Shown here: positions 19,501 to 51,453 of the stretch, piece after piece
Layout of the letters: each line of letters starts with the position of its first letter
Position numbering within the stretch: position 1 is the stretch's first letter
Assembly: GCA_964035575.1 (NCBI GenBank)
Contig: OZ037833.1
Coordinates: forward strand, 1 to 64,000
Reading direction: 5' to 3'
DNA from: Rhynchopus sp. YZ270_cl-10
Taxonomy: Eukaryota
DNA length: 64,000 nucleotides
Position numbers and translations under genes: made by a program
Notes under the pieces: generated by a model
What the model saw: the letters and a program-made list of their open reading frames with translations, nothing else
Database searches by the model: none
What the model was told of the DNA's origin: nothing

Positions 19501-19713
19501 CGGGTTTGCGGGTTTGCGGGTTTGCGGGTTTGCGGGTTTGCGGGTTTGCGGGTTTGCGGGTTTGCGGGTTTGCGGGTTTGCGGGTTTGCGGGTTTGCGGG
19601 TTTGCGGGTTTACGGGTTTGCGGGTTTGCGGGTTTGCGGGTTTGCGGGTTTGCGGGTTTGCGGGTTTGCGGGTTTGCGGGTTTGCGGGTTTGTGGGTTTG
19701 TGGGTTTGTGGGT
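16530..19713 (+). repeat. ~3.2-kb almost perfect (GGGTTTGC)n octamer tract ending in GGGTTTGT variants
   Basis: Read directly. Only a few GGGTTTAC variants near the ends, then an abrupt junction to unique sequence at about 19714. Confidence 0.98.
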
Positions 19714-28415: not shown

Positions 28416-31400
28416 CCCAAGTGTCACCAGACTTGATGTTCATCTTGCAGGCCAGCAAAGGCTGTACTACTTTCCTGGCAAGGAGGCAGAGGCGCTTGAC
28501 AAGGCCACGGACACAACACTCACAGCCTGGTTTGCTGCAAATAGCGACGCAAAACGTGACCCGTCTTCCAAGTACCAGGGAATACAAACCCTAAACTACA
28601 TCACTGTTCCTGAATACTTTGCCTTCTCCAGAGATAAAGCAGAGTGGACCCTGAGGAAAAGCTACGTGTACTGCCCCAGGACTGAGTCGCTTGTCACAAC
28701 GGACAGATCACGAGCTGCAAAGTCCCATCTTCTGGCTATTGGTCGCCTGTACAGAACCCCTGTTTTGGATAAGGAGCTCCAGGCTCTGCGCACGATCCTC
28801 ATGGTGAGAAAAGGACCCACTAGCTTTGATGACCTGATGACTGTAGAAGGGAAAAAGTGCGAGTCCTTTACGGATGCAGCAAATGAAATGGGGCTCCTTC
28901 AGGGTGGTAAACTTGTGAAGCTTACACTTGTGGATGCAGTCAAAACCACTGTGTCAGGAAGATGCCTCAGGTTTACCCTTGCTGTTCTACTCAACTCCTT
29001 TGCTATTCCTCCTAATGACATGAAAGAACTCTGGAAGACATACAAGGTGGAGCTGTGCAAGCGTCCTCTGAAGCAGGGAGAGACTGCACCGGATGAGGAG
29101 GCTACGGTATCTGAGCAGGAGGAAAATGAAGCACTGTTGGATATTCAGAATGTGTTGAGAAACATTTGTGGGTCGGATGTAAAGCTAGAAGTCTTTGGAC
29201 TTCCAACACCAACTGCTGCTGTGAGGAGTGCGAACGATGGAGTATCTTGGGTTATGAAAGATGAAATCTACAACATGGAAAAGCAGTGGCAGGAGTGGGA
29301 GAAGATTGAACCTAAGCTCAATACAAAACAGAGGGATGCAGTTCAGCGTGTTCAACTCTCTGTGACTCAGGGCAAAGGCGAGATGTTTCTGCTTCAGGGT
29401 GCTGCAGGGACTGGAAAAACGTTTACCTACCAAGCCATGCTCAGTTGGTGCAGAAGCCACAGAGGGGTTCCGGCGCAAGGTGACACGCATCGTCCAAACA
29501 TTGCCCTTGCAGTTGCGAGCTCTGGCATTGCAGCAATGCTCCTGCCTGGAGGAAGAACATCACACAACAGATTCAAGTTTCCTCTTGATCTGTACCCAGA
29601 TGACCACCACTCTGTCTGCAAACTGACAAAAGAAATTGAGGATCTCATCCGCGCAACGGATCTCATTGTCTTTGACGAGGTGGTTATGGCAAACAGGGGC
29701 CATATAGAACTTCTCGACAGAACCTGCAGAAAGGTTACCGGAAAGGCCATGTGGTTTGGTGGAATCACTGTGGTTCTTGGTGGAGATTTTAAGCAAATTC
29801 TTCCTGTCACTGAGGGAGACAAGAGTGCCACGCTTAAAAACTGTCTGCATACTTCTCCTCTCTTCCAAAACATGACTATGCTGTCCCTTATCGAGATAAT
29901 GAGGCAGAAGGATGACAAAGAATGGGCTACCTACCTGGGAACCATTGGTGATGGGTCGCGCAACGATAGAGACAGTTCCATATCTCTCCCAATAAACCTC
30001 TACCGAAAGAATTGTGGGAATTATGTTGTACCTGATGATTTAATCACCCACGTCTTCCCTCTGATTGGGGAAGGTGTAGTTGGAAATGGCATGATCCTTG
30101 CACCTACTAACAAAGCTCAGAAGGCAATGAACAACATTTGCCTCAAGAGGCTGTGTGGGAAACAAAAAGAAGTACTCCATGAGTTCCAGCTGACAGGGAA
30201 GGACACATGCACAGAGGAGTCTGTTGAGGGGGAATCTGCCATTGACTCAGACGTAATGAATGCGTACCAGCAGACAGGCATACCTGACCACTGCATCACT
30301 GTCAAGGTTGGTGCTCCTCTAATGTTGCTCAAAAACCTCAACCCACCAAAGGGTCTCTGCAACGGAACGAGGTTTATTGTGACTGGCGTGACACAGCTCA
30401 ACATTCAGGGTATCATTGTGGGAGACCCTCAAAGAGTTGGAATGGCAGTGAACATCCCCAGAGTTAAGAACACTCCTGACGAGAAGAAGGCTGGCTTCAG
30501 CATGCAGCGCGTCCAGTTTCCCGTCGCACTGTCATTTGCCTCTACAATTAACAAGTCTCAGGGACAGACCCTCGATAGGGTTGGACTCGACCTCACAGAG
30601 TCACAGTGCTTTGCACATGGGCAGTTGTACGTTGCTCTGAGCAGATGCCCAAAGGCAAAGCATGTCAAGGTTGCAGTGCCTCTGAAGACAAGGACCGCAG
30701 GAAACAGAAGGATAGTTGTGGAGCCGTACAGAGTGTCAAACCCTGTATACAAGGACATGCTAAAATCTGTTTCTGACCGTGGACTCGAGGGCATCTTTAT
30801 GCAGCTGACTGAAGCAGAAGAGGCCATGCTACAGAGTTACCACGTCATGACTGACAAAGAGTACTCTGAACAGACCCACAGACAAGCAAAGATGCCTCCA
30901 CCATCTGATGACCAAAAATTCTGGGACCCCATGCCAATGCAGTGCGAGAGCATTCAGTTTGAAGATGCTGAAGATCTTGTCTATGTAGCCAAAAAGAGGA
31001 AGAGAGATCCAGAAGAGAAGTCTCGTAAGAAGCGGAAGAAAAATAACCCTACATCAGCAGAAACAACAACAGCACAAAAGCCGAAGCTCTCTATTACCAG
31101 GGTTTTGGGGGATGGTACTTGCTTTTACCATGCAGTAGACCAGTCTATTACAAAGAGGATAGGACAAGGGAATCAACTCAGAAGAGAATTGGAATTGTTT
31201 GTTATGCAGAACAGCACTACAATAAAACATCATCCTCTTATTGTACCTGAAAACGCTAACACCGTATCCTCGATTGTAGGCACCTACAACGCCCTTATGA
31301 ACAGGATAACTGGCAGGATTGATGGGACGTACGCAACATCAGACTATGCAGAACAGATTGAGTTTGCCTTGGTGAGTCTCTTAAAACGTGTTCTAATAAC

Positions 31401-31653
31401 TATTGTCAAAATGAACCAAGATAACAAGCCCTCATCTTTTCACTTTTTGGGGAACAACTTGTCTACTGACCAGGTTCTTGCTAATATTCCTGCAAAAGAC
31501 AGGATTATTTTAATACATACTGCAAACCCTGATCATTTTAATATTGGTACAGGGTCTCCTGAACATGAATTGGAAACACACAAAAATGGTTTGGAACAAT
31601 TGCATAGGGGATTTCCTAATGAGATTTTATATCAAGTTGATTGGGAGCTGTGA
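28402..31653 (+). CDS. Helitron RepHel, C-terminal part (Pif1/SF1B helicase + OTU-like cysteine protease)
   Basis: VTRLDVHLAGQQ linker, Walker A GAAGTGKT, VASSGIAAMLLPGGRTSH, IVFDEV, LGGDFKQILPV, LCNGTR, QFPVALSFASTINKSQGQTL and HGQLYVALSR. OTU motifs are GDGTCFYHAV...DHFN. Confidence 0.95.
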   Translation: MRYIDPSVTRLDVHLAGQQRLYYFPGKEAEALDKATDTTLTAWFAANSDAKRDPSSKYQGIQTLNYITVPEYFAFSRDKAEWTLRKSYVYCPRTESLVTTDRSRAAKSHLLAIGRLYRTPVLDKELQALRTILMVRKGPTSFDDLMTVEGKKCESFTDAANEMGLLQGGKLVKLTLVDAVKTTVSGRCLRFTLAVLLNSFAIPPNDMKELWKTYKVELCKRPLKQGETAPDEEATVSEQEENEALLDIQNVLRNICGSDVKLEVFGLPTPTAAVRSANDGVSWVMKDEIYNMEKQWQEWEKIEPKLNTKQRDAVQRVQLSVTQGKGEMFLLQGAAGTGKTFTYQAMLSWCRSHRGVPAQGDTHRPNIALAVASSGIAAMLLPGGRTSHNRFKFPLDLYPDDHHSVCKLTKEIEDLIRATDLIVFDEVVMANRGHIELLDRTCRKVTGKAMWFGGITVVLGGDFKQILPVTEGDKSATLKNCLHTSPLFQNMTMLSLIEIMRQKDDKEWATYLGTIGDGSRNDRDSSISLPINLYRKNCGNYVVPDDLITHVFPLIGEGVVGNGMILAPTNKAQKAMNNICLKRLCGKQKEVLHEFQLTGKDTCTEESVEGESAIDSDVMNAYQQTGIPDHCITVKVGAPLMLLKNLNPPKGLCNGTRFIVTGVTQLNIQGIIVGDPQRVGMAVNIPRVKNTPDEKKAGFSMQRVQFPVALSFASTINKSQGQTLDRVGLDLTESQCFAHGQLYVALSRCPKAKHVKVAVPLKTRTAGNRRIVVEPYRVSNPVYKDMLKSVSDRGLEGIFMQLTEAEEAMLQSYHVMTDKEYSEQTHRQAKMPPPSDDQKFWDPMPMQCESIQFEDAEDLVYVAKKRKRDPEEKSRKKRKKNNPTSAETTTAQKPKLSITRVLGDGTCFYHAVDQSITKRIGQGNQLRRELELFVMQNSTTIKHHPLIVPENANTVSSIVGTYNALMNRITGRIDGTYATSDYAEQIEFALVSLLKRVLITIVKMNQDNKPSSFHFLGNNLSTDQVLANIPAKDRIILIHTANPDHFNIGTGSPEHELETHKNGLEQLHRGFPNEILYQVDWEL

Positions 31654-32286: not shown

Positions 32287-32528
32287 GTGCAAGGATGCTG
32301 TGCAAGGATGCTGTGCAAGGATGCTGTGCAAGGATGCTGTGCAAGGATGCTGTGCAAGGATGCTGTGCAAGGATGCTGTGCAAGGATGCTGTGCAAGGAT
32401 GCTGTGCAAGGATGCTGTGCAAGGATGCTGTGCAAGGATGCTGTGCAAGGATGCTGTGCAAGGATGCTGTGCAAGGATGCTGTGCAAGGATGCTGTGCAA
32501 GGATGCTGTGCAAGGATGCTGTGCAAGG
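32287..32528 (+). repeat. (GTGCAAGGATGCT)n 13-bp minisatellite, about 18 copies
   Basis: Read directly. Confidence 0.97.
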
Positions 32529-33795: not shown

Positions 33796-34152
33796 TGTGT
33801 GCTGTGTGTTCTGTGAAAACTGTGTGTGGGACCCAAAATACCTGTAAAAGTCTGTATATGAGGTTCTTGGGGTTTGGGCTAAAGTGGTTTGTGTTGTGTA
33901 CTATACTTCCCTGCTGACAGAGGGTGTACTGTGTACTGTGTACTGTGTACTGTGTACTGTGTACTGTGTACTGTGTACTGTGTACTGTGTACTGTGTACT
34001 GTGTACTGTGTACTGTGTACTGTGTACTGTGTACTGTGTACTGTGTACTGTGTACTGTGTACTGTGTACTGTGTACTGTGTACTGTGTACTGTGTACTGT
34101 GTAGGACTGCCCTCAGAATATGTTTTCCTTGGTCAGAGGCTCCATACAGGTG

Positions 34153-34157
<5 letters not shown>
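33796..34157 (+). repeat. Left copy (362 bp) of the long direct duplication flanking the retrotransposon; contains (TGTGTAC)n
   Basis: Matches 46057-46411 except for one extra heptamer unit, and abuts the poly(T) at 34158. Confidence 0.95.
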
Positions 34158-34206
<49 letters not shown>

Positions 34207-35241
34207 GGTGTTGTTCAACTTAGCCCTAGGCTCGCTTTTTTTTTATCTACATCCAGTGACAGAGGGGGTACTTACTAGTCAAGCGAGTATGTAAACAGCT
34301 AGATGTCCAGACAAGGGCACTTTACTATTGTACTGGCAAGACAGTGCCTGAAAACACAGTTAGTGGCACTAAAATAGAAAGCATCTGGGACAACTACAAC
34401 CAACACTTCCCTGCAAATAAGCAAAAGGGTCGTATGTGAGTGCAATTTTTCCCAAAAGGAAAAGGGGAGGGGATGGGACGGGAGGGTTGCTCTGTCTACC
34501 GGTGTAGTTTTATTTTGCTTTGTCTTGGGGAGGGGAGGGGAGGAGAAGGAGGGGATTGAGTGAGCCGTTTCCTCTGTAACACACAAACAAATAAATAGTG
34601 GAGCACACTCTAGGGTGGCTACACTAATACAACCAAGTTTTCAAATAAAAAGGAAGTTCCATAATCTTTTTAGTAGTTTTCTTTTTGGTGAAAATTTTTG
34701 AGAACTTCTGTAAGTGTGACCTGACCCGACTGACTGACACCAAAGGGGAAAACAACAATAACGCACAACAAAATCAACAACAACAATGGTGGGTCTCGTG
34801 CTTACCTGTGGTGGTTTTGAAAAATGAAAAATTTAAATTGACCTTCACAAGGTAAAAATGAAAAACTAAAAGAGTGAAAAAAGAAACTCAAAGGACAAGA
34901 GTTCTGTACAAACTCTACTCTACTGCACAATCTATAAAAGTGGCCCAATGGCTCCTGATGCCACTGGCCTGGCTCTTAGACAGGTCTTACTCCGAGACTG
35001 CCCTCTACCCTCGTCCAAGGGCTAAGGGCCGTCGCTGGGGTAGACCCGTCCTAGCCAGCAGCCAACCAAAAATATTAACAAAAAGGAAGGGGGGCGGAAA
35101 GGGGGGAAAGGGGGGGCAAACCCCAAAGGATGAAAAGAACAAAAAACACAAAATAAAAAGGGTTAAAAATAAACATGGGGCAAACTGTCATTCTCTACAC
35201 GCTTCTACACACACACTCTCACCCTCTAACTCTCTAACTCT

Positions 35242-38152
35242 CTAATTCTTTTTATTCCCCTTTTTCCCCTTCCTTCCTCCGCTCTGTCTCCCCTTCTGTC
35301 CACCACCGCGACCATTGCGCCCTCTCTGCACCTCCTGGGGCGAGAGCACATGCTGCGTCGCTTGTGCCACTGCGTCGGTGAACACGTTCGACGTGTTGGA
35401 CCTACCCTGAGCTGCATGGCGCTGGGGTCCTTTGGGAGCTGGGGAAGGAGCAGGTTGGGCGGAGGAGGTTGCATTGCCACGGCCTGCCGATGAGGAGGAG
35501 GAAGAAGTGGAGACTGCAGGTTGGGCGATGGAGGTTGTAGTGCCACGGCCTGCAGAGGTGGAGGAAGAAGAAGAAGAAGAAGAAGAGGAGGCTTGAGGTT
35601 GTCGGCCTATTCCCTCTCGAGCCGCTCGTGCCTCATTCTCCCTCCTTGTACTCTCCGCTGCAAAGGCCTGCCCCCTACTGCTCCGGTTGTCCGTCAGGGC
35701 ATGCAACGTCGACTTTGCCTTGCACTTTTCCTGAACCGACCACTCATGCAAACCCACCACCTTCATCACCTCATACCACTGAGTGAAAGTAGCGGTAGAG
35801 AGGGGGAGTGACAACAAGGGTCTGCCATCCTGTTTCTCTCCCTGACGGTAGTGGAACAGGGAGATCCACTTCGTCACAGAAGAAGGCACCGGCGACCCCA
35901 TGGTGAGGCACGGGAAAAGACCCCCCCTCTCCGTCCGCTCCTCCTCCGTCCACATCCAAGCCTCGCTCTGCGCCCTCAGCAATTCCCTCACCCTCGCTTG
36001 CTTCTTCTGGTCAGGGATGCCTTCCACTGACAGAGAATGCGAGCGATCCGCCCCCTCCATCGCGGTGTCGAGGTCCTCCTCCTGCTCCTGCTCATCATCA
36101 TCCATCTCCTCCACCTTCACACGCACCTCGGTGTCTGCCGCCTCGGCCTGTCGCCCCACCTCCTCCTCCAGCTGATCCCGAGAAGGGGTTCCCCAGCTGA
36201 CCCTGCCTTCCCGAACGACGATGACCGCGCTGGTCTTGCCCCAGGTGTCGCAGTATCCGGCCTCCCCTGCTATCTTCCTAACCGCCTGACGGGCGACCAC
36301 CGACTCCGGGCAATCACCGTCCCCCTCCCCGTTCCCACTCCACGGCTGCTGTGTCGCCCAGCAGTACAGGAACTCGCCCGGGCACGGAGAAGCACCTTGA
36401 GGACCAAAGAGAGCCATCCAGTCGCCGACACAGTCAGGTTCGAGTCCTTCAGGGTCGTCGCCCACCGCTCTCCGCACCGCATGGCAGGGGAGGAATAGCC
36501 GCCCTTCGCACACCACCCCAAAGCACCGCCCGTATGCCACCATGCGTTCTGCCTCCAGCTGTCGGGAGAGGTTCACCGCCGTCAACAACAGAGTGGTCGC
36601 CTTCTGCTCCGACTCATGCTTAGCTGCGATGGCGTAATGCCTCTCGCAGCGTTGCCTGTCATACTCCGCCCGGAGCGACTCTCCTGCTTCGGGGTGCCGA
36701 TCGCAGTCTTCCAAGTACTGCGCATGCATCTTCTTCGCGTCCTCTGCGAGTTCCCGCTTGTGCCTGGCGGTCAGCTCCTCCACACGATGCCTGTCCGCCG
36801 CCTTCGCCTGGTCCAGACGCACATTCTGTTCCTCCAGGAAACGACTCAACTCCTGCTGGCGGTCGCCAAAAGTGCCCCGAAGCGCGGCCAAATCCGGTCC
36901 CCACGACCGACGATGCTCCCGCCGTACCTCCAGGGCTTGCTGCCACGCGTCCGACGCACGCTGCAACGCTTCCTTCTTCTCCTGGTCCGCCTTTTGTTGT
37001 TGCTGCTTCTGCTGTTTCCGTTGCTTCTCGTGCTTCTGCTGCTTCTGTTCTGCCTGCTGCCCCTCTTCGCCCATTAAACATTGAACATTCGAGTGCAAAA
37101 AAGACAGGGCACTGAAATATTCCGCCCTGCCAATTTGCGACAGAGGGCAGTGCTTGGACCCCTGAGCGCAGTGCAGACATGCCAAGCCACCACACGTGTG
37201 ACAGCAGAAGTGTGCGTCCGACGCATCGAAGAGCTTGCTGCATTGTTCGCACTGCAGGAAAGTGTTCGACGCCTCCGCCTCCCTCGCTCCCACAAAAGCC
37301 ATGGGGCGCTCTGACTGGCACTCCCCCTTACCACCTGTGGCCTCAAAAGACAGGATGTGCTGCTGCAGAGCCGGGTCCATGGTGAGGGGCTCGTAGTGTC
37401 CCGGGATACTGCCGGATCCATCTGCCGCATCCTGATCACCCGAGTGGAGGAGAAGGACCACTGCCTTAGGCCGTTTTCTTGGCACCATCAGAGAAGGGCG
37501 GGCGAACTCGTTGAGGATGACCACAGATACCTCAAGAGCCTCCCCTGCCCCCGCCACTGCAATGGCATCCGCCCACGTACGCTGGTCTCCTCTGTCCCCA
37601 CTCGTCATCAGCCGCTGCCAGACCCCAAAATTAGGGACAGCCGCACTCGACAGATCAGCGCGGCCCTGGACCTTCTTCACTGCCGCCTGGCGCAGACCCT
37701 CCACCGTCAAATCCGTGCGCCCGGTGGCGAAGAGCAAAGCCTCAAAAGCACAGTCCCCCGCCACAAACGACCAAGTCACCTTCGAGGCTCCCAGCTTGGC
37801 CGCCTGCTCCGTCGCCCGAGGCCTCTGCGCTGCCGGGCACTCACGCAAAAACTCCCACTCACGCACCACATCGAGACCAGGCCCTTCCGGAATCACGGTG
37901 GCCGAATCGAACCTCCCGGTCCGCTTCCTCGGTGGCTCCACGTGGTCCGGCTTCACGTCCCTCTTGCGCTTCCCCTGCTGCTCCTCCGTTCGGTCTGCAG
38001 GACGACTCATATCGTCGTCAGGGTTCGCATCGTCACAGAGAGGTTCCACGGCCCCTGCACTGCGGCGTCCAAACCGGTCCATGTCCTCTGCAGACGGTGC
38101 CACATCTACCTCCACACACGGCTCCCGCTTCAGGGTGGCAATCCCTACACAC

Positions 38153-38154
<2 letters not shown>
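35242..38154 (-). CDS. Retrotransposon polyprotein, part 2 (in-frame continuation after the nested insert): second OTU-like domain, Cys-rich Zn finger, Gln/Glu coiled coil, Gly/Arg/Lys tail
   Basis: 970-aa open frame with AGDCAFEAL...WADAIAV...GHYEPL and CEQC...CCHTCGGLACLHC. It begins MCVG, the same residues that end the RLE part (ERGAMCVG). Confidence 0.85.
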
Positions 38155-38155
<1 letters not shown>

Positions 38156-38199
<44 letters not shown>

Positions 38200-38777
38200 G
38201 TGTTGTTCAACTTAGCCCTAGGCTCGCTTTTTTTATCTACATCCAGTGACAGAGGGGGTACTTACTAGTCAAGCGAGTATGTAAACAGCTAGATGTCCAG
38301 ACAAGGGCACTTTACTATTGTACTGGCAAGACAGTGCCTGAAAACACAGTTAGTGGCACTAAAATAGAAAGCATCTGGGACAACTACAACCAACACTTCC
38401 CTGCAAATAAGCAAAAGGGTCGTATGTGAGTGCAATTTTTCCCAAAAGGAAAAGGGGAGGGGATGGGACGGGAGGGTTGCTCTGTCTACCGGTGTAGTTT
38501 TATTTTGCTTTGTCTTGGAGAGGGGAGGGGAGGAGAAGGAGGGGATTGAGTGAGCCGTTTCCTCTGTAACACACAAACAAATAAAAAGGAAGTTCCATAA
38601 TCTTTTTAGTAGTTTTCTTTTTGGTGAAAATTTTTGAGAACTTCAGTAAGTGTGACCTGACCCGACTGACTGACACCCAAAGGGGAAAACAACAATAACG
38701 CACAACAAAATCAACAACAACAATGGTGGGTCTCGTGCTTACCTGTGGTGGTTTTGAAAAATGAAAAATGAAATTGA
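38156..38777 (-). mobile_element. 5'-truncated copy (3' UTR end + poly(A)) of the same retrotransposon family nested in the host element
   Basis: 38199-38780 is near-identical to 34206-34844 apart from a 54-bp deletion and a few substitutions. It has a 43-nt poly(T) at 38156-38198 and is flanked by CCTACACACATA at 38144-38155 and 38778-38789. Confidence 0.92.
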
Positions 38778-41700
38778 CCTACACACATAGCACCCCGCTC
38801 CAGAAAGGAAGATGCGACCTTTTTCTGGTACGCCACCGCAATGCTCTCCCGGATGCGCAACTCTGCCGACCCTGTTAGGTGCGACGTCTGTCCCGTCGTC
38901 AGGCCTCCAAGCTGCGCAATCAAGAGGTTCGCCTCGTCGCCTGCACCCCCGAAGGCTTCAAACACAATAGGGGAGAACTTGGTGTTGATCTTGTTCAAAT
39001 CCCGCTCGTGCTTCTCCCGTTTGACCTGGCCCTGGTTCTTCGCCGACCAGCCCACAAACTTCGAGGCCCCTGTTCTGTAGGAAGGCAAGGTGGGGCACAC
39101 GTGGGTGATGTCCAAACAACGAGGTCCATTTTCCGCCACTCCTACTGGGAGGTAGACATCGCCTGGCCGCTTCTTAGACTCCAACTCCACTCGCACGGTC
39201 TCCTCCAAAGCAGGGTCCAAGCCCGCCCCTTGAGCCGCTCTGTACACCGAATCCCGCAAGGCGTTGTGGCGGGCGACGCGGTGTTTGGAGTAGGGGCAGC
39301 CAAAGGTGTGGTCGCCAAAGGAGTCCATGACAACCCTTTTCTGCCCCCCCTGACATGCCGAGCAAGTCGTTCCCTCCGCATGGATGGCCACCCCTAGTCG
39401 GAAACGGGTCACAACCGCAAAATCCGCTGAAGACATCTGGTTCCTTGCTGAGGGTGTCGCCGTGAGGTACGTCCCGGAAAGCGGCAGGAGAAGGGACTTC
39501 ATCCGTGCTCGGTCTCGCATGCAGAGCTGTTGCATCAACTTGTCTGCCTGGGCGTCAATCACCGCAGATGACAGACTCTGCTGCTCCAGGATCTTCTTCG
39601 GCTGGGCCCTGTCCACGTGAAACGCCACCGGTACCCTGGAGTTGTACTCCTCAGCTGCGCTGTTCCATCTCTCCTCATCCCAGGTGAAGGCAGGGTCCAA
39701 GGCCTGCGACAGTTGCAGGTTCCCTGACTGAGAGGCGAGGGACGCAGCCGTCCGATGGTCCACTGTGCGACGGATACCCAGCCCCCCAAGCGCCACAGGA
39801 AGCGCCGCCTGCGCCCTTGCCAACTCCGGCAGCGCCCCATCCGGGTCATGCAGAAGCGCAGCCAGGCACCTGTCGATCAGGTCGTCAAAAGCCGTCAGGT
39901 ACTCCGCGCACTGTGGGATCCCCCGCATGTAGAACACCATGCGGCAGTAGCCTTCGCAGTATCTCAGTACGTAGAAGGCTGCCTGGGAGTCCCCGAGGTC
40001 CACAAGGGCTTCCAGGTTGCGGCGGGAATCGTCCACCTTCCGGGCCATGTACTCCTCGCAGAATGCCGCAGACCCAATGGGGATGCCCAAGAAATCGAAC
40101 CCATCCACATCCAACAGCCGGAACCCGCCTTCACCCATGGCGTCCTGTCCACCCTCGGTCAACGTGAACCCCACCGCCTTGAGCTCCTCCGTGGAGACGC
40201 CACCAGTGGAGATGAGCTCACACTTGTTCGCGTTCACCTCCAACCCCAGTTCGGAGCTACGAGTGCGCAGAACCTGGTACGCCTCAAAAACCGCCTTAGG
40301 GGACCCCCGCAGAGAGCCGTCATCGAGGTACCACAAAGTCCCATCCAGGCCTGGGTGCCCCTTCAGCTCTAGCGCCATCTGGTGGATGGTCAGGGAGAAG
40401 AGAAGCGGGCCCAAGGGATCTCCTTGTTGAGCTCCGCGCTGTGACCTTATGGTATCTCCACCATAAAACAGGCTGGAGGGCTCCAGGTAACACCATCGCA
40501 CCCATGGGGCCAGCTCGGGGAGGTTCGCGTCGACCGCTCTTAGCATCGACAGGCGGTCTACGCAGTTGAACGCGTTACGGTAGTCAATTTTCAAAATGAC
40601 TTTACCTTTTCCGCGGTTGCGCACGGCGTACTGCGAGATAACATCAGTCGCCACTGCCGCCCCCCTTGCCGTTGCCGCCCCCACCTGGTTCCCTCGAAGA
40701 AGAAGCGTCCTAGCAGGCACCCGCACTCGCGCCGACAGAATCTTTCCCACCAGTCTGCGGAGAGTGTCCCCAACCGCAATCGGTCGCACGTCCTCCTCCA
40801 GGCCCGGCCCCTTTGCAGGCTTCCGGAGAGCCACCAAGTTAGCGCCGGCGAAGAACTCAGCCACCTCCACTGGAGCATTTCCTCGTGCCAAAGACGTCAA
40901 CACTGCGGCCAGCGCTGCCAAAGTGCCCTTAGCCCGCCTCTGTAGGCAAAGTGTACGAAGGTGCGCGCCCGTCACGTTCGAGGGACCCGCCGCCGATGAC
41001 TTCGGCATGCTCCGCAGGGCCTTCATCACCTCCACCACTGTCACCGGTGGGACCTCCTGAGGCTGGGGCCAATCCGCCTGCTCCAGGGCCTTGGAGTCGG
41101 CAGCGGCTGGGTGCTTCGTCTGAAGCTTTTCCATCGTCGCCGGTGTCTGTGGGGCGAGGCCGTCGCTGGTAGCGCAAGACATGGCCTGGCTCGGGAGTCC
41201 TGCTCTCGCTTTGGCGATGGTGCGCTTCCGTTTCCCTTCGTCAGTGTCTTCATCCGACCACCCAGAGGGCCTTGGCTTCCGCTCCTCTACCGTTTGCTCC
41301 CACAGGGCGACATACTGGCCAGCCTTCCAAGCCTCCAAGTCCTTCCCCCAGGTGCTCGTCAAACGTCGCTCCTGGTCCTTGCCCCCTCGTTCTGTCCGTG
41401 TCCGGTGCAACACTGTGAAGAACAGTGCAAGGCGCTTCCAGGCCACCTCGTCCTGGTACTCCAGGATGTCCATGAGGACCCTCAGGAAGAGCTCGCTGTA
41501 CAGCTGTAGGTGTTTGTCTGGGCACCCGCCCTTCAGCTGGATCCTGGTGGTCCCCATGACTTCAAAGGAGGGGAGGTCATCCTGATCTGTCAGCATTCCT
41601 CGACTGGAGGGAGACGGAGCGGTGAAGCCTTCTTCGCCAAAGTGCACCGTACAGGTGTTGCAGACCTCCTTGCTCTGCGGCAATAGCATGTCGCACTGAT

Positions 41701-44700
41701 CGTTCGCACAGCGCGACATGCCCAAGTGGCCCAACAGCTCGTCGGGGATGTACGCCCCATCGGCCTGGTGGCGACGCATGTGCTGCAGCAAGCCCTTACG
41801 AGACAGGCCCCCGACCGCATCACTCGAAGACAAAATTCCCGCTCTGCATCCATCAAAGGGGCAGAACACCCGATCCGCATTGATGTGTCCCAGCTTGGTA
41901 GCCAGGGGGGCGGTGGTGGTGGTGTTGGTGGGGATGATGCCATCCAAATGCGCTGTGTCCAGCACTGCCTGCCGAGCCTCCTTCCTCATCTTCTCTGCCA
42001 TCCCCTCCTTGGTCTTCCCCACCTCCGGGACAAGCTCCACTGCCTCAAAGTGAGAGTCACAGAGAGCGATGACGACCGTGGGAAGTTTCGCTTGGAAGCT
42101 CTCCGCGTACGACTTGGCGACTCTTTTGCTACCAGGGGTGATGCGCACGAGGGGGTTCTCTTCCGATGCCTGCACCACCACGATGTTGATGCGGGATGCT
42201 GTCGCGGTGAGCTGAAGCCCCAAGTGGTTGAGGTGGGCCTCGCCGGTCACACCATTGGCAAACTCCGTCATGGCCTCCTGCGACCCCAGCACCTGCACCA
42301 GGCGGTTCGACACCTCCACTGCTGTGTCATATAGCTGCTTGCGCATTGCCCTCACGTCCGGCTGCGTGTCGTGGTCCCAGAGGTGTAGTGCCACATAACC
42401 ACAATCATTAGTAGACACGTTGGGGATGCGTTTAGCTCCAAACTTCGCCAGAGTCGCGTCCACAGACACCGCCTGCTCTGTATACGCAGGAGCGTTCACG
42501 TTTGCGCACCCACCGGTCAACGCAAACGGGGACAAGCTTACCGGGTGCTCCGGATCAGCAGGGGCAGGGCGCAGGTCCCAGGGCGTCACCGCTCGCCACA
42601 ACAACGACAGCAAGACCAGTAGGGACACCGCCAGCATGCCAAATGCCATCCCGATCCTACGAGTCCACCTGCGTGCTGCCACACGGCGCACCTCCAAGAG
42701 AAGAACCCAGCCAAGTGGGCGCGCGACGCCGACCAGTGCCACAAAACCCGCCAAACAACCACCTGCGGACCATGCAACCCACACCCACTCGGCTGCACGC
42801 ACCGACAACTGACCCACCCCCATCACACTGGCTCTCACCAAGCTGGCAGCCACTCGGATCCCTCCGGTCCATCGGTGCACTCGCTCGCTCGCCCCTTCCA
42901 GCCACCGCCACCCCCTGCGTGCGCGGCACAGTCCCCGCAGCAGACCCACCCCCAGCACCTCCGCGTCCCGAAACAGCGCACAACCCAAAGCATGTGGCGC
43001 TGACCTCCCAAGCTCAGACCCCACAAAAACCAGAACCCAGATGGCCACACACTGCAAAGCACCTCTCAACGCATCGGCGACCCTGATCCTGCGGAAAACT
43101 GGGTGCGCTGTCGGGGAGGGCGGACGATTGCAGGGCGCCTTGCGCCGACGGAGCCTGCCCGCCTGTGACTTGGTCCAGTTCAAGGACCGGTGTCCTCGTC
43201 GCGTCCTCCTGGTCCTCCTGCCCACCAGCCACAAAATGAGATGACTGAGGGTAGGGGCGCGTCTGTCCTTCCACAGATCCAGGACCGCGAACGACACAAA
43301 CACTCCCCACTCAGGTGCCTCGGCTACCCAGCAGGGGTCAGGCTGACGCAAGGAGGTGAAGACCTCCCAGAGGTTGCACCACCAGTCGAACCAAAACTCT
43401 ATCTGTGCACACCCCTTTTGCCACACCCGCATCATCACACAGCCACTCTGTCCTTCTCGCCCCGCAAGGCTGACCCCGAACACCAGCATACCTCGCTCAC
43501 CACCCCCTAGGTTGTTGTCGCTGATGTTGTTGCTGCGTCTGCTGTTGATGTTGGTGCTGCTGTTGGACCTGCTGTTGGAACTGCTGCTGCAGAAGTCTTT
43601 GGAACTGCAGTTGAAACTGCTGTTGTGCCTGCTGTTGGAACTGCTGCTGGAACTGCTTTTGGAGACGCTGTTGGAACCGCTGCTGCAGAAGTCTGTGGAA
43701 CTGCTGTTGAAACTGCTGTTAAGCCTACTGTTGGAACTGCTGTTGGACCTGCCGTTAGAGCTGCTGCCGCAGAAGTCCTTGCTGATGAAACTGCTGTTGT
43801 GCCTGTTGCTGGAACTGCTTTTGGAAACGCTGTTGGAACTGCTGCTGCAGAAGCCATTGGAACTGCTGTTGAAACTGCTGTTGTTGAGCCTGCTGTTGGA
43901 ACTGCTGATGGACCTGCCGTTGGAGCTGCTGCCGCAGAAGTCCTTGCTGATGAAACTGCTGTTGTGCCTGCTGTTGTGCCTGTTGCTGGAACTGCTTTTG
44001 GAAACGCTGTTGGAACTGCTGCTGCAGAAGCCATTGGAACTGCTGTTGAAACTGCTGTTGTTGTGCCTGCTGTTGGAACTGCTGCTGGACCTGCTGTTGG
44101 AACCGCTGCTGCAGAAGTCTGTGGAACTGCTGTTGAAACTGCTGTTAAGCCTACTGTTGGAACTGCTGTTGGACCTGCCGTTAGAGCTGCTGCCGCAGAA
44201 GTCCTTGCTGTTGAAACTGCTGTTGTTGAGCCTGCTGTTGGAACTGCTGATGGACCTGCCGTTGGAGCTGCTGCTGCAGAAGTCTTTGGAACTGCAGTTG
44301 AAACTGCTGTTGTGCCTGCTGTTGGAACTGCTGCTGGAACTGCTTTTGGAAACGCTCGTGGAACTGCTGCTGCAGAAGCCGTTGGAACTGCTGTTTAAAC
44401 TGCTGTTGTGCCTGCTGTTGGAACTGCTGTTGGACCTGCTGTTGGAACCGCTGCTGCAGAAGCCTTTGGAACTGCTGGTGAAAAAGCTGTAGAGCCTGCT
44501 GTTGGAACTGCTGCTGTAAAGGCCTTTGGAACTGCTGCTGCTGCACACCAGGGGTGATACTGGGACCCCACCCAGGACTCCGAAGATTTCGTTTTTGCTG
44601 CTATCACAGTTGCAGCCACTGATGTGGTTGGGCATACATTGCCTCTTTTTGGGGATATCATGGGGGGAAGGGGGGTGTGGGTTGTTATGACAACAGTTCT

Positions 44701-44853
44701 TTGCTTTGTTGCCTCCACACACGTTTTTGTTGCTGCTATCAAAGCTGCAGCTGCTTGGGTTGTTGGGCTCAAGAGGCCTCTTTTTGGGGTAAAAAAGGGG
44801 GGGAAGGGGGCTCCTGCTACTGCTGTTGATGCAGCTTAAGTTGTTGCTCCTGT

Positions 44854-44894
<41 letters not shown>

Positions 44895-45811
44895 TTGTTG
44901 CTGCTGTTGTTGCTGCTGCTCTTGTTGCTGCTGTTGCTGCTGCTGCAGTTGCAGCTGGTGTAGCATATGTTGTTGCTGCTGTTGCTGCTGCTGCTGCTGT
45001 TGCTGCTTTTGTTGCTGCTGTTGCTGCTGCTGCTGTTGCTGCTGTTGCTGCTGTTGCTGCTGTTGCTGCTGTTGCTGCTGTTGCTGCTGTTGCTGCTGTT
45101 GCTGCTGTTGCTGCTGTTGCTGCTGTTGCTGCTGTTGCTGCTGTTGCTGCTGTTGCTGCTGTTGCTGCTGTTGCTGCTGTTGCTGCTGTTGCTGCTGTTG
45201 CTGCTGTTGCTGCTGTTGCTGCCGTTGTTGCTGCTGCTGCAGTTGCAGCTGGTGTAGTATATGCTGCTGTTGCTGCTGTTGCTGCTGTTGCTGGTGTTGC
45301 TGCTGTTGCTGCTGTTGCTGCTGTTGCTGCTGTTGCTGCTGTTGCTGCTGTTGCTGCTGTTGCTGCTGTTGCTGCTGTTGCTGCTGTTGCTGCTGTTGCT
45401 GCTGTTGCTGCTGTTGCTGCTGTTGCTGCTGTTGCTGCCGTTGTTGCTGCTGCTGCAGTTGCAGCTGGTGTAGTATATGCTGCTGTTGCTGCTGTTGCTG
45501 CTGTTGCTGGTGTTGCTGCTGTTGCTGCTGTTGCTGCTGTTGCTGCTGTTGCTGCTGTTGCTGCTGTTGCTGCTGTTGCTGCTGTTGCTGCTGTTGCTGC
45601 TGTTGCTGCTGTTGCTGCTGTTGCTGCTGTTGCTGCTGTTGCTGCTGTTGCTGCTGTTGCTGCTGTTGCTGCTGTTGCTGCTGTTGCTGCTGTTGCTGCT
45701 GTTGCTGCTGTTGCTGCTCTTGTTGTTGCTGCTGGTGTAGCTCCTGCTGCTGCTGCTGATGCAGACATGCAGCACCACCCACAACGCCCCCAAAAGGGCC
45801 TTCCTCCTCAT
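38778..45811 (-). CDS. Retrotransposon polyprotein, part 1: Ser/Asn repeats, hydrophobic segments, OTU-like domain, Zn fingers, reverse transcriptase, CCHC knuckle, restriction-like endonuclease
   Basis: RT motifs VRPIAVGDTLRRLVGK, KIDYRNAFN, QRGAQQGDPLGPLLF, WYLDDG and FLGIPIG (CRE-type). Knuckle CSAC...GDHTFGC, then RHNALRD and RPGDVY...LDIT (RLE). OTU motifs NDCGYVAL...SHFEAV. The first ATG is at 45811; the ORF track starts at a TTG at 45931. The last 21 aa of the track ORF come from the nested insert. Confidence 0.93.
44845..45757 (+). repeat. (GTTGCTGCT)n / CTG-type coding microsatellite with a 216-bp higher-order duplication
   Basis: Read directly. The landmark GGTGTAGTATATG recurs 216 bp apart. 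It encodes SNS repeats in the retrotransposon frame. Confidence 0.93.
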
Positions 45812-46000
45812 TTTTAAAAAAGCAAAAACCAAAAAACGAAAACAAAGAAGGACAAGACACACTACGCCTTGCGCTTCGCCGGCCTGCACTCCTCTACCGT
45901 TGCCCAGGGACCGCCCCGTGGAGGCGTACAAGGCTCACAATAAAACAAAGGAAAGGGGGAGGGAGGGAGGGTAAAAAGAAAGGACAAGTGTGTTGTAATG

Positions 46001-46055
46001 TGTAAAAAATGGTCCCCTTGTAAAAAATGGTCCCCTTTGTAAAAAATGGTCCCCT
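46001..46055 (-). repeat. Three tandem 18-19-bp repeats at the retrotransposon 5' terminus
   Basis: TGTAAAAAATGGTCCCCT(T) x3, immediately inside the right direct repeat. Confidence 0.9.
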
Positions 46056-46056
46056 G

Positions 46057-46411
46057 TGTGTGCTGTGTGTTCTGTGAAAACTGTGTGTGGGACCCAAAAT
46101 ACCTGTAAAAGTCTGTATATGAGGTTCTTGGGGTTTGGGCTAAAGTGGTTTGTGTTGTGTACTATACTTCCCTGCTGACAGAGGGTGTACTGTGTACTGT
46201 GTACTGTGTACTGTGTACTGTGTACTGTGTACTGTGTACTGTGTACTGTGTACTGTGTACTGTGTACTGTGTACTGTGTACTGTGTACTGTGTACTGTGT
46301 ACTGTGTACTGTGTACTGTGTACTGTGTACTGTGTACTGTGTACTGTGTACTGTGTAGGACTGCCCTCAGAATATGTTTTCCTTGGTCAGAGGCTCCATA
46401 CAGGTGAAAGG
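46057..46411 (+). repeat. Right copy (355 bp) of the long direct duplication
   Basis: Matches 33796-34157 with one fewer TGTGTAC unit (offset 12261 before the array, 12254 after). Confidence 0.95.
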
Positions 46412-46634
46412 TGAAAAGTTTTCAAGCAAAAAAAAAAGTTTTGCCTGTGAAAGTCATAGGGTGCCAATCTCAAGGGCACCCTGTGCACCCTTTTTCCGGA
46501 CCCAAAAAGGCACCCTGTGCACCCTTTCTCGGGGATCAAAAGCACCCTGTGCACCTTTTCAAAATCCAGTTCCGGGGGGTTTCGGGAGGGTTTCGTGCAG
46601 TGGGTTTTGAAGCACCCTGTGCACCCTAGATACC

Positions 46635-47415
46635 CTGTGCAAGGATGCTGTGCAAGGATGCTGTGCAAGGATGCTGTGCAAGGATGCTGTGCAAGGATGC
46701 TGTGCAAGGATGCTGTGCAAGGATGCTGTGCAAGGATGCTGTGCAAGGATGCTGTGCAAGGATGCTGTGCAAGGATGCTGTGCAAGGATGCTGTGCAAGG
46801 ATGCTGTGCAAGGATGCTGTGCAAGGATGCTGTGCAAGGATGCTGTGCAAGGATGCTGTGCAAGGATGCTGTGCAAGGATGCTGTGCAAGGATGCTGTGC
46901 AAGGATGCTGTGCAAGGATGCTGTGCAAGGATGCTGTGCAAGGATGCTGTGCAAGGATGCTGTGCAAGGATGCTGTGCAAGGATGCTGTGCAAGGATGCT
47001 GTGCAAGGATGCTGTGCAAGGATGCTGTGCAAGGATGCTGTGCAAGGATGCTGTGCAAGGATGCTGTGCAAGGATGCTGTGCAAGGATGCTGTGCAAGGA
47101 TGCTGTGCAAGGATGCTGTGCAAGGATGCTGTGCAAGGATGCTGTGCAAGGATGCTGTGCAAGGATGCTGTGCAAGGATGCTGTGCAAGGATGCTGTGCA
47201 AGGATGCTGTGCAAGGATGCTGTGCAAGGATGCTGTGCAAGGATGCTGTGCAAGGATGCTGTGCAAGGATGCTGTGCAAGGATGCTGTGCAAGGATGCTG
47301 TGCAAGGATGCTGTGCAAGGATGCTGTGCAAGGATGCTGTGCAAGGATGCTGTGCAAGGATGCTGTGCAAGGATGCTGTGCAAGGATGCTGTGCAAGGAT
47401 GCTGTGCAAGGATGC
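46635..47415 (+). repeat. (GTGCAAGGATGCT)n 13-bp minisatellite, about 60 copies, preceded by four GCACCCTGTGCACC motifs (46475-46626)
   Basis: Read directly. Same unit and orientation as 32287-32528. Confidence 0.97.
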
Positions 47416-49639: not shown

Positions 49640-50460
49640 TTATTGGTGCCTGTACCCATCTCTCTGTGCGTCACGGTGCTGGCGCAAGCGGTCCCAGAAG
49701 GCCTGGCGCGGATGTTGGCCCATCCTGCAGACCCATCCTGCGCACCTATCGTCACCACCAGACGCATTGTTGTGGTGGAAGTTCTCGTGCAGCACCCACG
49801 ACCGGCGGTACCCATCCGTCAGCAGCATCTGGCGTGGCTTTGCGTACTCGGCACACAGCGCCCCATGCACGTACATCCCTGTCTCCATCACGTTGTGCTC
49901 CCAGGTCATGTCGTGTCCCGAGAGCTGGTACTCGAACCTCCTGCGTTGTGTACGTCACCCCCTCAGGCCAGTAGATGCACTCGTACGCACCGCACAGGAA
50001 GTTCGGCATCGTTGCGTCGGGCACCACCAGCGACGACGTCCCAACAGCCCCGCACCTGTTCCCCAGCGTCTCCACCTCCGCCGCACCCAGGGCACGCGAG
50101 TACACACGCACGTCCTACGAAGACCTGTCTGCACACGCCCACGCAGTGTCGGCGGAGCTGTTCCCGATGGACAGGTGCGAGCAGGAGTTCCCGTACGAAA
50201 GTGTGACGGACATGACGTCGCGCACGGTGAGTGGACTTTGGTGCGCTGTCTGCTGGGCCGGGCCTTGTGACGCTGTCGCTGAAAGTGGGGCAGGCGGGTG
50301 TGCTGCTGCAGTCTGAGGCGGTGACGGTTGCCGAGGACGCAGGGCGTGTGTCGGTGGCAGTGCTGCAGTAGGAAAACTCGAGCGGCACGTACGCGAACAG
50401 GCTTGCCCCTCCTGTCCGATGTCTGCCAGCGCACAGCGTGCCTCGCAGCGGTTGAACGAA
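49640..50460 (-). pseudogene. Degraded GC-rich coding fragment, possibly LamG/concanavalin-like
   Basis: GC-rich island with broken frames. [14 protein letters not shown] resembles the LamG C-terminal motif, and an in-frame stop lies directly before it. Confidence 0.4.
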
Positions 50461-50497
50461 CACACAATACCCCGACAGTTAGTGTTTGTTTTTTGTC

Positions 50498-51243
50498 CTT
50501 GGAAAGACGGTCTGAATGTGAAAGACGGTCTGCAAGCCCCTCGTACATCGTAGTTCCTCCTGAGAGAACAATGTTGGCGTACAAGTCCTTACGCACATCG
50601 ATGTCACACTTCATGATGGAGTTGTACACCGTCTCATGGATTCCGTTTGCCTCAAGCCCAATGAACTGTGGCTTGAAGAGTGCCTCAGGGCAACGGAATC
50701 TCTCCGAGCCCACTGTGATCACCTGTCCATCGGGAAGCTCGTAGTCTTTTTCCAACGACGACGACGACGAGGCCAGGGACATCTCCTCGTCAACGTCCTG
50801 TAAAATGGTGGTGGGTTTTTGGGGTTTTCTTTTTCCTGTACAAAATATGCATACCAAGGCAACGTAGGCGAGCTTTTCTTTCACATCACGCACAATCTCG
50901 CGCTCTGCAGAGGTGACAAAGCTGTTACCACGTTCTGTCAGAAGCCTGATCATCCAGTCTGTCATGTCTCCTCCAGCCATGTCAATACGAAGCACGGCGC
51001 GCGGCAGAGAGTACACCTCGTAGATGGGAACTGTGTGGGTCACACCATCTCCTGAGTCAAGAACAATTCCTGTTGTGCGCCCTGATGAGTACAGGGACAG
51101 CACCGCCTGGATCCCAACGTACATTGCAGGGCTGCTGAACGTCTCAAACATGATCTGTGTCATCTTTTCACGGTTGGCCTTTGGGTTCATGGGCGCTTCT
51201 GTGAGAAGCACGGGGTGATCCTCAGGTGCAACACGGAGCTTCA
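50498..51243 (-). pseudogene. ACT: Actin fragment (roughly the middle 60% of the protein), truncated at both ends, with one 57-bp GT-AG intron (50798-50854)
   Basis: [34 protein letters not shown]...[19 protein letters not shown]...[18 protein letters not shown]. Normally conserved sites are changed (YEVY, LPRA, AGGD), and the actin N- and C-termini are absent. Confidence 0.92.
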
Positions 51244-51323
51244 TTTGTTGAAATTTTCTGGCTTTTTCTGAACTTTTCCCAGCTACTTTTCTGGTCGAGT
51301 AGCCATTTTCAGTAAAATAGCTA

Positions 51324-51453
51324 CCGTAATCGTAAGAATGCTGGGGCGTAAAATTTTTGGGACGTAAATATTCTGGGGCGTAACAAAACTGGGACATTTT
51401 GGGCTTTTTTAAACTTGGGACATTTTTACGTCCCAGAATTCTTACGATTACGG
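51324..51453. mobile_element. 130-bp MITE, 30-bp TIRs (28/30 match), TA on both sides; Tc1/mariner-pogo-like
   Basis: TA|CCGTAATCGTAAGAATGCTGGGGCGTAAAA ... TTTTACGTCCCAGAATTCTTACGATTACGG|TA. Confidence 0.82.

Follow-up and report, generated by a model that had tools for sequence, protein, structure and literature searches.

The 64,000-nt stretch of Rhynchopus sp. YZ270_cl-10 analysed here (the window; contig OZ037833.1 of assembly GCA_964035575.1, positions 1 to 64,000 of the forward strand) contains, on its minus strand, a retrotransposon without long terminal repeats (a non-LTR element) of the type that encodes a restriction-like endonuclease (RLE), the gene of which has been split by a copy of the element's own 3' end. 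The two open reading frames (ORFs) on either side of this insert, ORF A (P0001) and ORF B (P0002), are confirmed to be one gene, and the encoded protein continues for about 1,000 amino acids (aa) beyond the endonuclease. This extension includes an OTU-fold domain that is predicted, from its motifs and from a structural model, to act as a deubiquitinase, a reading that appears moderately likely. A second, probable OTU domain lies upstream of the core. For RLE-type long interspersed elements (LINEs), no description of an OTU module located after the RLE was found in the open-access PMC and bioRxiv literature.

One gene divided by a copy of its own 3' end

The spacer between the two ORFs has a 12-nt direct repeat at either end (TATGTGTGTAGG on the minus strand), the two copies of which, at 38778-38789 and at 38144-38155, match perfectly. 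The ATG within the repeat lies in codon phase 0 in both ORFs (at 38788 in ORF A; at 38154, where it is the start codon of ORF B), so that removal of the insert and one repeat copy gives the in-frame sequence ...ERGAMCVG/IATLKREP..., exactly the fusion proposed in a first-pass annotation that was made from the letters alone. The insert aligns to the tail of the parent element, from the stop-codon region to the poly(A) (34164-34849), apart from a few substitutions and a deletion of 54 nt, and its 5' junction exhibits the microhomology TGTG(A/T)AGG. An older copy of the family has thus received, within its ORF, either a 5'-truncated daughter of that family or a non-autonomous copy derived from the tail. 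The first-pass annotation had correctly described a nested insert with a 12-bp duplication, but had missed that the insert is the element's own 3' end. In a contig of sequencing run X2, insert-like sequence is found ~1.67 kb downstream of the equivalent of window position 36500, which is the place of the parent tail.

Intact copies of the gene exist. A word-indexed protein search with the part comprising the reverse transcriptase (RT) and the RLE as query retrieved P0003, a protein of 2570 aa that represents a cluster of 187 members. It shares 1551 of 1571 residues with ORF A (residues 815-2385) and 961 of 1005 with ORF B (residues 1-970), and its junction is unbroken, reading FLERGAMCVGIATLKREP. 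All nine full-length cluster members that were examined (2567-2571 aa; taken from 15 listed, with 40 read, of the 187) read ...ERGAMCVGIATLKREP... without a break, and they have a common start and a Gly/Arg/Lys-rich end. Had the extension been a peculiarity of this locus, other copies would be expected to stop soon after the RLE; the nine members instead keep the entire extension open. Uninterrupted copies, which the first-pass annotation had proposed to seek in reads, were also found at the DNA level, as Logan contigs from runs X1 (3930 nt) and X2 (8127 nt) bridge the junction, with position 38778 directly abutting 38141-38143. The alternative that the two ORFs are independent genes or elements, neighbours by chance, has only their separation in the window to recommend it; with a duplication-flanked retroposon as the spacer and a continuous frame in nine of nine paralogues and in the contigs of two runs, it is hardly conceivable.

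The window copy carries a second lesion, an in-frame deletion of ~105 bp within ORF B. At this site, contigs of runs X1, X2 and X4 have 115 letters versus 10 in the window, and P0003 has ~35 more residues. The window copy is dead, owing to the self-insertion and this deletion, and the family has intact members of 2567-2571 aa in the source genome or genomes.

The rejoined frame has 3,311 codons when counted from the first ATG of the element at 45811, in agreement with the ~3,310 aa proposed at first pass. However, this ATG is followed by ~770 codons of Ser/Asn repeats, and the gene models of all nine intact paralogues examined start at a Met that corresponds to residue 815 of P0001. In family 2, two of the full-length members listed (P0180 and P0185; 3057 aa) begin upstream of similar repeats. 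The open frame itself begins at 45931. Within ORF A, codons 101-300 lack stops in each of the three frames of this strand, and openness is thus uninformative on coding in that part. The predicted length of the protein is at least ~2,540 aa in the window copy and 2,570 aa in intact copies, and a 3,311-aa protein started at 45811 is possible. The region that follows residue 815 is 65-70% identical to its counterparts in the families of P0004 and P0005, and residues 51-100 of P0003 (P0001 residues 865-914; window 43190-43339) are 90% and 86% identical to the two other families, versus ~45-60% in the RT. Because this region is open for 300 codons at ~65% GC, it is probably translated, or may also be an RNA or DNA signal.

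The extension, its OTU domains and their possible function

A HMMER scan of 1.84 billion representative sequences with the extension as query returned 28 proteins at E <= 0.001, mostly fragments of the same family; the diverged proteins among them align only over residues ~50-346. The structure of P0002 was predicted with AlphaFold2 from an alignment with 26 of the 28 matches, leaving out the long proteins P0006 and P0039. The first-pass annotation had proposed to model these 970 residues, and the result comprises a confident OTU fold and long helices: residues 90-270 and three helices at 346-547 are predicted with confidence and the rest poorly, the mean predicted local distance difference test (pLDDT) value being 55.9. 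In a Foldseek search against the PDB with OTU domain 2 (OTU2), all ten matches at E <= 0.001 were OTU domains (Otu2 at 6.2e-5, OTUD1, nairovirus OTUs), and OTUD3 followed next after these ten best (target-normalised TM-score of 0.69). The homologous second module of P0005, which aligns to P0002 at E 1e-12, matches Pfam OTU with 28.9 bits versus a cut-off of 23.3. Of 11 C-terminal modules, 8 retain the catalytic Cys (GDC.F) and 8 the His (GH[YF]). The OTU module is present in tandem in families 2 and 3 (P0004 residues 1766-1950, P0005 residues 1570-1725), the first with Ser in place of Cys and without the His, the second intact; on these motifs the first copy in P0004 and P0005 is likely to be a pseudo-enzyme.

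OTU2 is preceded by a linker with basic KRKR motifs, which connects it to the RLE, and is followed by a Cys/His-rich finger that is kept in P0004, P0005, P0024 and P0037 and has Pfam matches below the cut-off (FYVE 0.0023, IBR 0.038). Sequence relatives of the predicted coiled coil are close ones only. The C-terminal domain denoted D4 is present in P0024, P0006 and P0041, with 36-38% identity across three families. At the very end, 11 Lys and Arg versus 1 Asp or Glu are found among the last 40 residues, in an RGG-like context; this tail is family-specific, as families 2 and 3 end in acidic sequence. The extra C-terminal module described at first pass is thus present with its OTU domain, finger and coiled coil, of which the OTU domain and the finger recur in diverged families, but the Gly/Arg/Lys tail is absent from the sister families. 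A PDB sequence search with the extension gave only chance-level rows (E >= 0.035), and a Protein Atlas search with residues 548-835 gave no usable match.

A second OTU-like domain, missed at first pass, lies upstream of the zinc fingers (OTU1). Its Cys (NDCGY) and His (DSHFEAV) motifs are kept in all three families. The three best of 48,161 chains in a VIA-align search were OTUD1 (Z 9.0, 135 residues aligned), OTUD3 (8.2) and Otu2 (7.7), and the ten best Foldseek rows were all members of the OTU family, with a best E of 0.046 and none significant. Motifs and structural comparisons together make OTU1 a probable OTU domain.

The extension is restricted to part of the group. Among 134 stored proteins with a match to the core, 79 reach the end of the endonuclease, and these have fewer than 100 residues past the RLE in 66 cases, 100-199 in 3 and at least 200 in 10, in a set that is biased because it was partly gathered with the extension itself as query. 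That RLE-type relatives normally end at or near the endonuclease, as was assumed from the outset, is thus borne out. Local searches detected the OTU module in P0003 to P0006, P0024, P0033, P0035, P0037, P0039 and P0042; the relatives with the module all stem from ENA assemblies. In a midpoint-rooted FastTree (LG+gamma) phylogeny of 99 sequences and 762 columns, built from the window and 98 RT-RLE cores that were picked by core coverage from 133 stored proteins, the seven proteins with a post-RLE OTU module form one clade (support 0.995), the sister of which is P0043, a fragment on a 2.5-kb contig. As the carriers are monophyletic, the module was acquired once and has been retained while the cores diverged to 33-52% identity.

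This distribution bears on the view that the extension is a functionless passenger, derived from a host OTU gene that a single event of read-through or template switching had brought in. LINEs often acquire accessory domains in individual lineages, such as the N-terminal MLLE (PABP C-terminal) domain in P0009 and the RNase H after the endonuclease in P0127, and the 28 matching proteins are few for 1.84 billion representatives. However, the module is in frame in families with such diverged cores, the catalytic Cys and His are kept in most modules with at least one intact copy after duplication, the full-length members keep the whole extension open, and its codon-position GC pattern is the same as that of the core (GC3 0.55-0.79). 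A passenger is thus very unlikely, and the extension, being in frame, core-like in GC and recurrent in diverged families, is real and appears to be selected.

It had also been suggested at first pass that the C-terminal module might supply the RNA-chaperone function of an ORF1. In this reading it would be a multimerising nucleic-acid-binding chaperone added past the endonuclease, and the OTU domain would be secondary. The element has no separate ORF1, and both the ~200 residues that are predicted as long helices and the basic tail would fit this function. Nevertheless, neither an RNA-recognition motif nor a zinc knuckle nor any other nucleic-acid-binding fold was detected with Pfam, the PDB sequence search or the Atlas, the tail is missing in families 2 and 3, and the coiled coil is detectable only in close relatives, so that the OTU domain and the finger are the conserved parts. 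In addition, many single-ORF RLE elements function without any ORF1. A chaperone function, which has the predicted coiled coil and a family-specific tail behind it and otherwise little support, is therefore improbable.

Since the conserved part of the extension consists of the OTU domain and the finger, ubiquitin-system or protease chemistry is suggested. In the favoured reading, the OTU domains would act in trans, stripping off ubiquitin or a ubiquitin-like modifier, and the targets would likely be the element's own very large protein or ribonucleoprotein (RNP), or host factors at the integration site. Deubiquitination might lend stability to the machinery or weaken a host response that depends on ubiquitin; effects of this kind have been proposed where other transposons carry OTU, Ulp1 or Josephin domains, and have been shown for viral OTUs. 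The finger could help to bind the substrate, the coiled coil could multimerise the protein, and a candidate ribozyme (see below) would cut the RNA at the first nucleotides of the element.

A cis-acting role would be different: the OTU domains would be proteases that cut the precursor of 2,570-3,300 aa into an N-terminal part, a zinc finger-RT-RLE core and a C-terminal accessory protein. Two protease-fold domains indeed sit at both borders of this core, the very long ORF falls into distinct modules, Ulp1-like proteases are N-terminal in NeSL and Utopia-1_TSP according to a passage in PMC4640811, and the OTU of turnip yellow mosaic virus (TYMV) is described as both protease and deubiquitinase in PMC5695851. 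On the other hand, the module borders lack conserved Gly-Gly dipeptides; the only three that are conserved among the three family representatives are all inside domains (RT, RLE and D4), which is weak evidence because sites need not be Gly-Gly. A 2A-type NPGP motif was absent from all 10 proteins inspected. A passage in PMC2836005 places OTU and Ulp1 domains on the transposases of Ginger1, Helitron and Mutator elements, which are single-function enzymes that need no processing and not polyproteins, and proposes a role of the ubiquitin pathway in transposition. A preprint (PMC13405545), as far as its text was available, reports Josephin and OTU deubiquitinase domains fused to the N-terminus of LINE ORF2 proteins. 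Because of these precedents, because the best structural matches are bona fide deubiquitinases and because of the lack of conserved Gly-Gly at the border, a deubiquitinase acting in trans is favoured, and processing in cis is regarded as unlikely, though a serious contender. The sequence FEAFGG was considered as a cleavage site and rejected, as its E and G are residues of the consensus that 112 segments share for the RLE.

It should be noted that several points weigh against the deubiquitinase reading. Neither OTU domain of the window has a Pfam OTU match even at E 10. The N-terminal AlphaFold model that holds OTU1 is poor (mean pLDDT 38.7), and an hhalign comparison of OTU1 with the C-terminal OTU modules places the Cys motifs opposite each other at E 0.004, the probability being only 8%. 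Residues 548-970, more than half of the extension, have no confident model or assigned fold. The function itself is deduced from fold and motifs only, and tymovirus and arterivirus OTUs also process polyproteins, which keeps a role as cis-protease under consideration.

Class, boundaries and surroundings of the element

The element is an RLE-type non-LTR retrotransposon; the CRE clade, to which it was assigned at first pass, is a candidate placement only, likened to the element by layout and distant relatives. The class follows from the RVT_1 match (59.6 bits versus a cut-off of 29.6), the best RT matches in a PDB sequence search (L1 ORF2p at 1.4e-8, R2 proteins at 1.8e-5), the CCHC-RLE motif string and the zinc fingers. 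The RLE consensus C..C...H...C...RH...RP.D...D...K...E..G is common to 112 aligned segments, reference included, and homology across these segments stops near residue 1565 of P0003, a few residues before the site of the nested copy. Scoring of 7996 candidates yielded 436 relatives of the RT-RLE core at E <= 0.001, with 28-39% identity among the best 120, and the named relatives among the matches listed are from dinoflagellates, a sponge and Diplonema. The hallmarks of RLE elements are all present, namely poly(A) tails (48 and 43 nt), a 12-bp duplication and a 5'-truncated daughter copy. Insertion into the spliced-leader gene, the hallmark of kinetoplastid CRE elements, was not observed, as the nested copy is in an ORF and the flanks of the element are satellite-like.

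Like members of the R2, R4, NeSL, Utopia, Hero and CRE clades, the element has a single ORF with N-terminal zinc fingers, RT, CCHC motif and a PD-(D/E)xK-type endonuclease, as well as poly(A), target-site duplications and 5'-truncated copies; unlike in these clades, its ORF runs ~1,000 aa past the endonuclease and contains two OTU-fold domains. The CRE layout is summarised in a passage of PMC12278014 as usually a single ORF with RT, RLE and one or two zinc-finger motifs, poly(A), internal repeats and variable target-site duplications. All of these parts, which characterise CRE1, CRE2, SLACS and CZAR of trypanosomatids, are present in the element, but the layout is also common to other RLE clades, and the element differs from the CRE clade in that it lies outside the spliced-leader RNA gene and its endonuclease is not C-terminal. 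The core protein searches returned no named CRE, SLACS or CZAR protein, and a Protein Atlas search with the core gave only RVT_1 clusters. Proteins of Diplonema papillatum are distant named relatives, with ~30% identity. SLACS-like RTs have been reported from the genome of this species (PMC10161547); in the available part of the supplement to that report, four DIPPA identifiers, out of six Diplonema matches, are absent, and only the orthogroup OG0000024, 'SLACS 132 kDa', is present.

The copy as a whole is delimited by its poly(A) (34158-34205, 48 nt) and by two copies of a flanking repeat, X (Table 1). The copies of X (356-363 bp) are 98% identical over 363 columns; their unique parts are identical at 128 of 128 and 55 of 55 positions, and they differ solely in the number of 7-bp units in a (CAGTACA)n tract. 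The simplest reading is that they are an unusually long target-site duplication of ~360 bp, and one family would thus have made a 12-bp duplication at the nested copy beside a ~360-bp one at the whole element. The flanks are satellite-like DNA with (CAGTACA)n-containing repeats, and the two insertions seen, one in satellite-like DNA and one within the ORF of another copy, gave no sign of site specificity. No Rfam family, including spliced-leader RNA, was found in the window at gathering thresholds. Perfect 13-bp tandem arrays (100% matches) occur on either side of the insertion region, at 46635-47415 (60 copies) and at 32287-32528 (18.6 copies).

Table 1. Coordinates of the retrotransposon, its parts and its flanking repeats in the window
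Feature	Positions	Strand	Basis or remark
Whole retrotransposon copy, ~11.9 kb including the nested insert	34159..46056	-	Bounded by poly(A) and flanking repeats
Flanking repeat X, upstream copy	46057..46412	-	Candidate target-site duplication, ~360 bp
Flanking repeat X, downstream copy	33796..34158	-	Immediately past the poly(A)
Candidate HDV-like self-cleaving ribozyme	45867..46054	-	Core 45933-45867; three GGGGACC as candidate P1 strands
ORF A (P0001)	38711..45931	-	2406 aa; ORF scan
First ATG (45811), then Ser/Asn-coding tandem repeats	43549..45811	-	9-bp array 44842-45755; 84/177-bp array 43549-44541
Conserved N-terminal region (P0001 residues 815-1115)	42587..43489	-	Paralogue gene-model start within
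OTU-like domain 1 (OTU1; P0001 residues ~1145-1302)	42020..42472	-	N-terminal to the zinc fingers
N-terminal zinc fingers (CPFDGC...HMRRH, then C-x4-C-x11-C-x2-C)	41645..41869	-	Translation; conserved in P0003
Reverse transcriptase domain	40160..40798	-	Pfam RVT_1, E 4.4e-16
CCHC motif and restriction-like endonuclease	38930..39364	-	Consensus motif string
Nested insertion with two 12-bp target-site duplications	38144..38789	-	622-bp insert at 38156-38777, 43-nt poly(A)
ORF B (P0002), post-endonuclease extension	35242..38154	-	970 codons in the window copy
OTU domain 2 (OTU2; P0002 residues 96-270; GDCAF, GHYEPL)	37345..37869	-	Model pLDDT ~90
Cys/His-rich finger (residues 296-340)	37135..37269	-	C-x2-C...CCH-C...C-H-C...HC
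Copy-specific in-frame deletion, ~105 bp	37072..37083	-	Contigs and P0003
Predicted coiled-coil region (residues 346-547)	36514..37119	-	Three long helices, pLDDT mostly 80-95
Conserved C-terminal domain D4 (residues 716-830)	35665..36009	-	Low-confidence model
Gly/Arg/Lys-rich basic tail	35245..35337	-	Translation
3' untranslated region (UTR) and tail with poly(A)	34159..35241	-	Tail-bearing contigs run on into the UTR

The 5' end of the element has a candidate self-cleaving ribozyme of the hepatitis delta virus (HDV) type. A permissive Rfam scan matched the full model of RF02682 at 45938-45867 with 24.6 bits (E 0.14 in 3.7 kb, 0.01 in 281 nt). With the P1 strand that the model selects, two positions are mismatched; GGGGACC, which would pair perfectly over 7 bp, is found three times within the 118 nt upstream versus 0.07 expected, and the first of these starts 2 nt past the end of the flanking repeat. 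The pairings, read by eye from one sequence, would be P1 GGGGACC/GGUCCCU (7 bp), P2 CCUUG/CAAGG, P3 GCC/GGC and P1.1 CC/GG, with P3/L3, GGGCAAC and the J4/2 sequence GGCGAAG in place. The fold would require a very long J1/2 linker of 75-112 nt, which folds no better than shuffled sequences (z-score 0.80). Cleavage at the first nucleotide of P1 is given as the rule for the HDV class in a passage of PMC4908430, so that a ribozyme here would define the 5' end of the element, and R2 and L1Tc are known cases (PMC3774820, PMC3185411, both as excerpted). R2 would thus resemble the element in having an HDV-like ribozyme at the 5' end. It weighs against the candidate that its score is under the Rfam gathering threshold of 44 and that it is represented by one copy only.

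Elsewhere in the window, the 8-bp unit TTGCGGGT, which is telomere-like in composition, forms arrays at 5497-10832 and 16530-19713 (670 and 398 copies), and shorter arrays (25-34 copies) are repeated at intervals of about 1 kb across 561-16000, beside a duplicated 59-bp unit. Adjacent ORFs on the plus strand (25635-31653) with matches to Helitron_like_N (1.2e-28) and the PIF1 helicase (8.5e-49) represent a Helitron that is split or frameshifted between Rep and helicase. An ORF of 480 aa at 49955-51397 (minus strand) matches actin over about half of its length, with ~73% identity to canonical actins of many phyla, and has paralogues at 86-94% identity in ENA assemblies. An uninterrupted minus-strand ORF of more than 3,236 codons (54290-64000) runs off the end of the window and has only weak HYR-like and SigLec-like matches. 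The runs X1-X12 contain at least a quarter of the sampled words of the stretch and are labelled with eight different organisms from eight studies, and several kinds of samples seem to contain the element's host. No RNA run is among the runs listed as containing the stretch, and a search of JGI metagenomes with P0002 gave 59 pattern matches, none of which was confirmed.

Deubiquitinase-fold domains in a retrotransposon lineage

The proteins of RLE-type LINEs are viewed as compact machines of zinc finger, RT and endonuclease, with nothing beyond the endonuclease. R2 and other such LINEs are being developed as gene-insertion tools and serve as models for target-primed reverse transcription. The combination found here has partial counterparts in several other systems. 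The LINE ORF2 fusions with deubiquitinase domains (Josephin in Haematococcus lacustris, OTU in Symbiodinium necroappetens; PMC13405545, in the part available) resemble OTU1 in their N-terminal position. However, these fusions are N-terminal and have 2A-like peptides, whereas the element has no NPGP motif and carries its second OTU past the endonuclease, in a far larger module. The DNA transposons with OTU or Ulp1 domains (Ginger1, Helitron and Mutator, as described in part of PMC2836005) share with the element a C-terminal OTU (pfam02338) on a transposition enzyme, but they use DDE or RepHel enzymes, whereas the element is a retrotransposon with two OTUs, a finger, a coiled coil and further regions.

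The RLE-type LINEs with Ulp1 likewise have a clan-CA cysteine protease of the kind that hydrolyses ubiquitin-like modifiers, but this is Ulp1 and not OTU, is present as a single N-terminal copy, and nothing follows the endonuclease. Viral OTU proteases (nairovirus L, arterivirus PLP2, tymovirus PRO/DUB) are similar in that an OTU fold resides in the giant replicase polyprotein of a selfish replicon; the viruses are, however, RNA viruses, and the likeness is at the level of the fold only, with 11-18% identity in the alignments.

A more far-reaching scenario would be that this LINE lineage has swapped the usual separate ORF1 for a built-in ubiquitin arm, in which two active OTUs on either side of the RT-endonuclease core would both free the core from a C-terminal, self-assembling coiled-coil accessory protein and strip ubiquitin from the integration complex. 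Such a combination of functions is speculative and is given little credence. If it were true, the element would carry its own counter-defence against a ubiquitin-dependent silencing of retrotransposition.

In any case, a lineage with many intact copies devotes 40% of its protein to a module past the endonuclease, and its protein has two deubiquitinase-fold domains. The element thereby extends the recent observation of N-terminal fusions between deubiquitinases and LINEs. This suggests that ubiquitin control, whether of the RNP of the element or of chromatin and repair factors of the host, can be a built-in part of retrotransposition.

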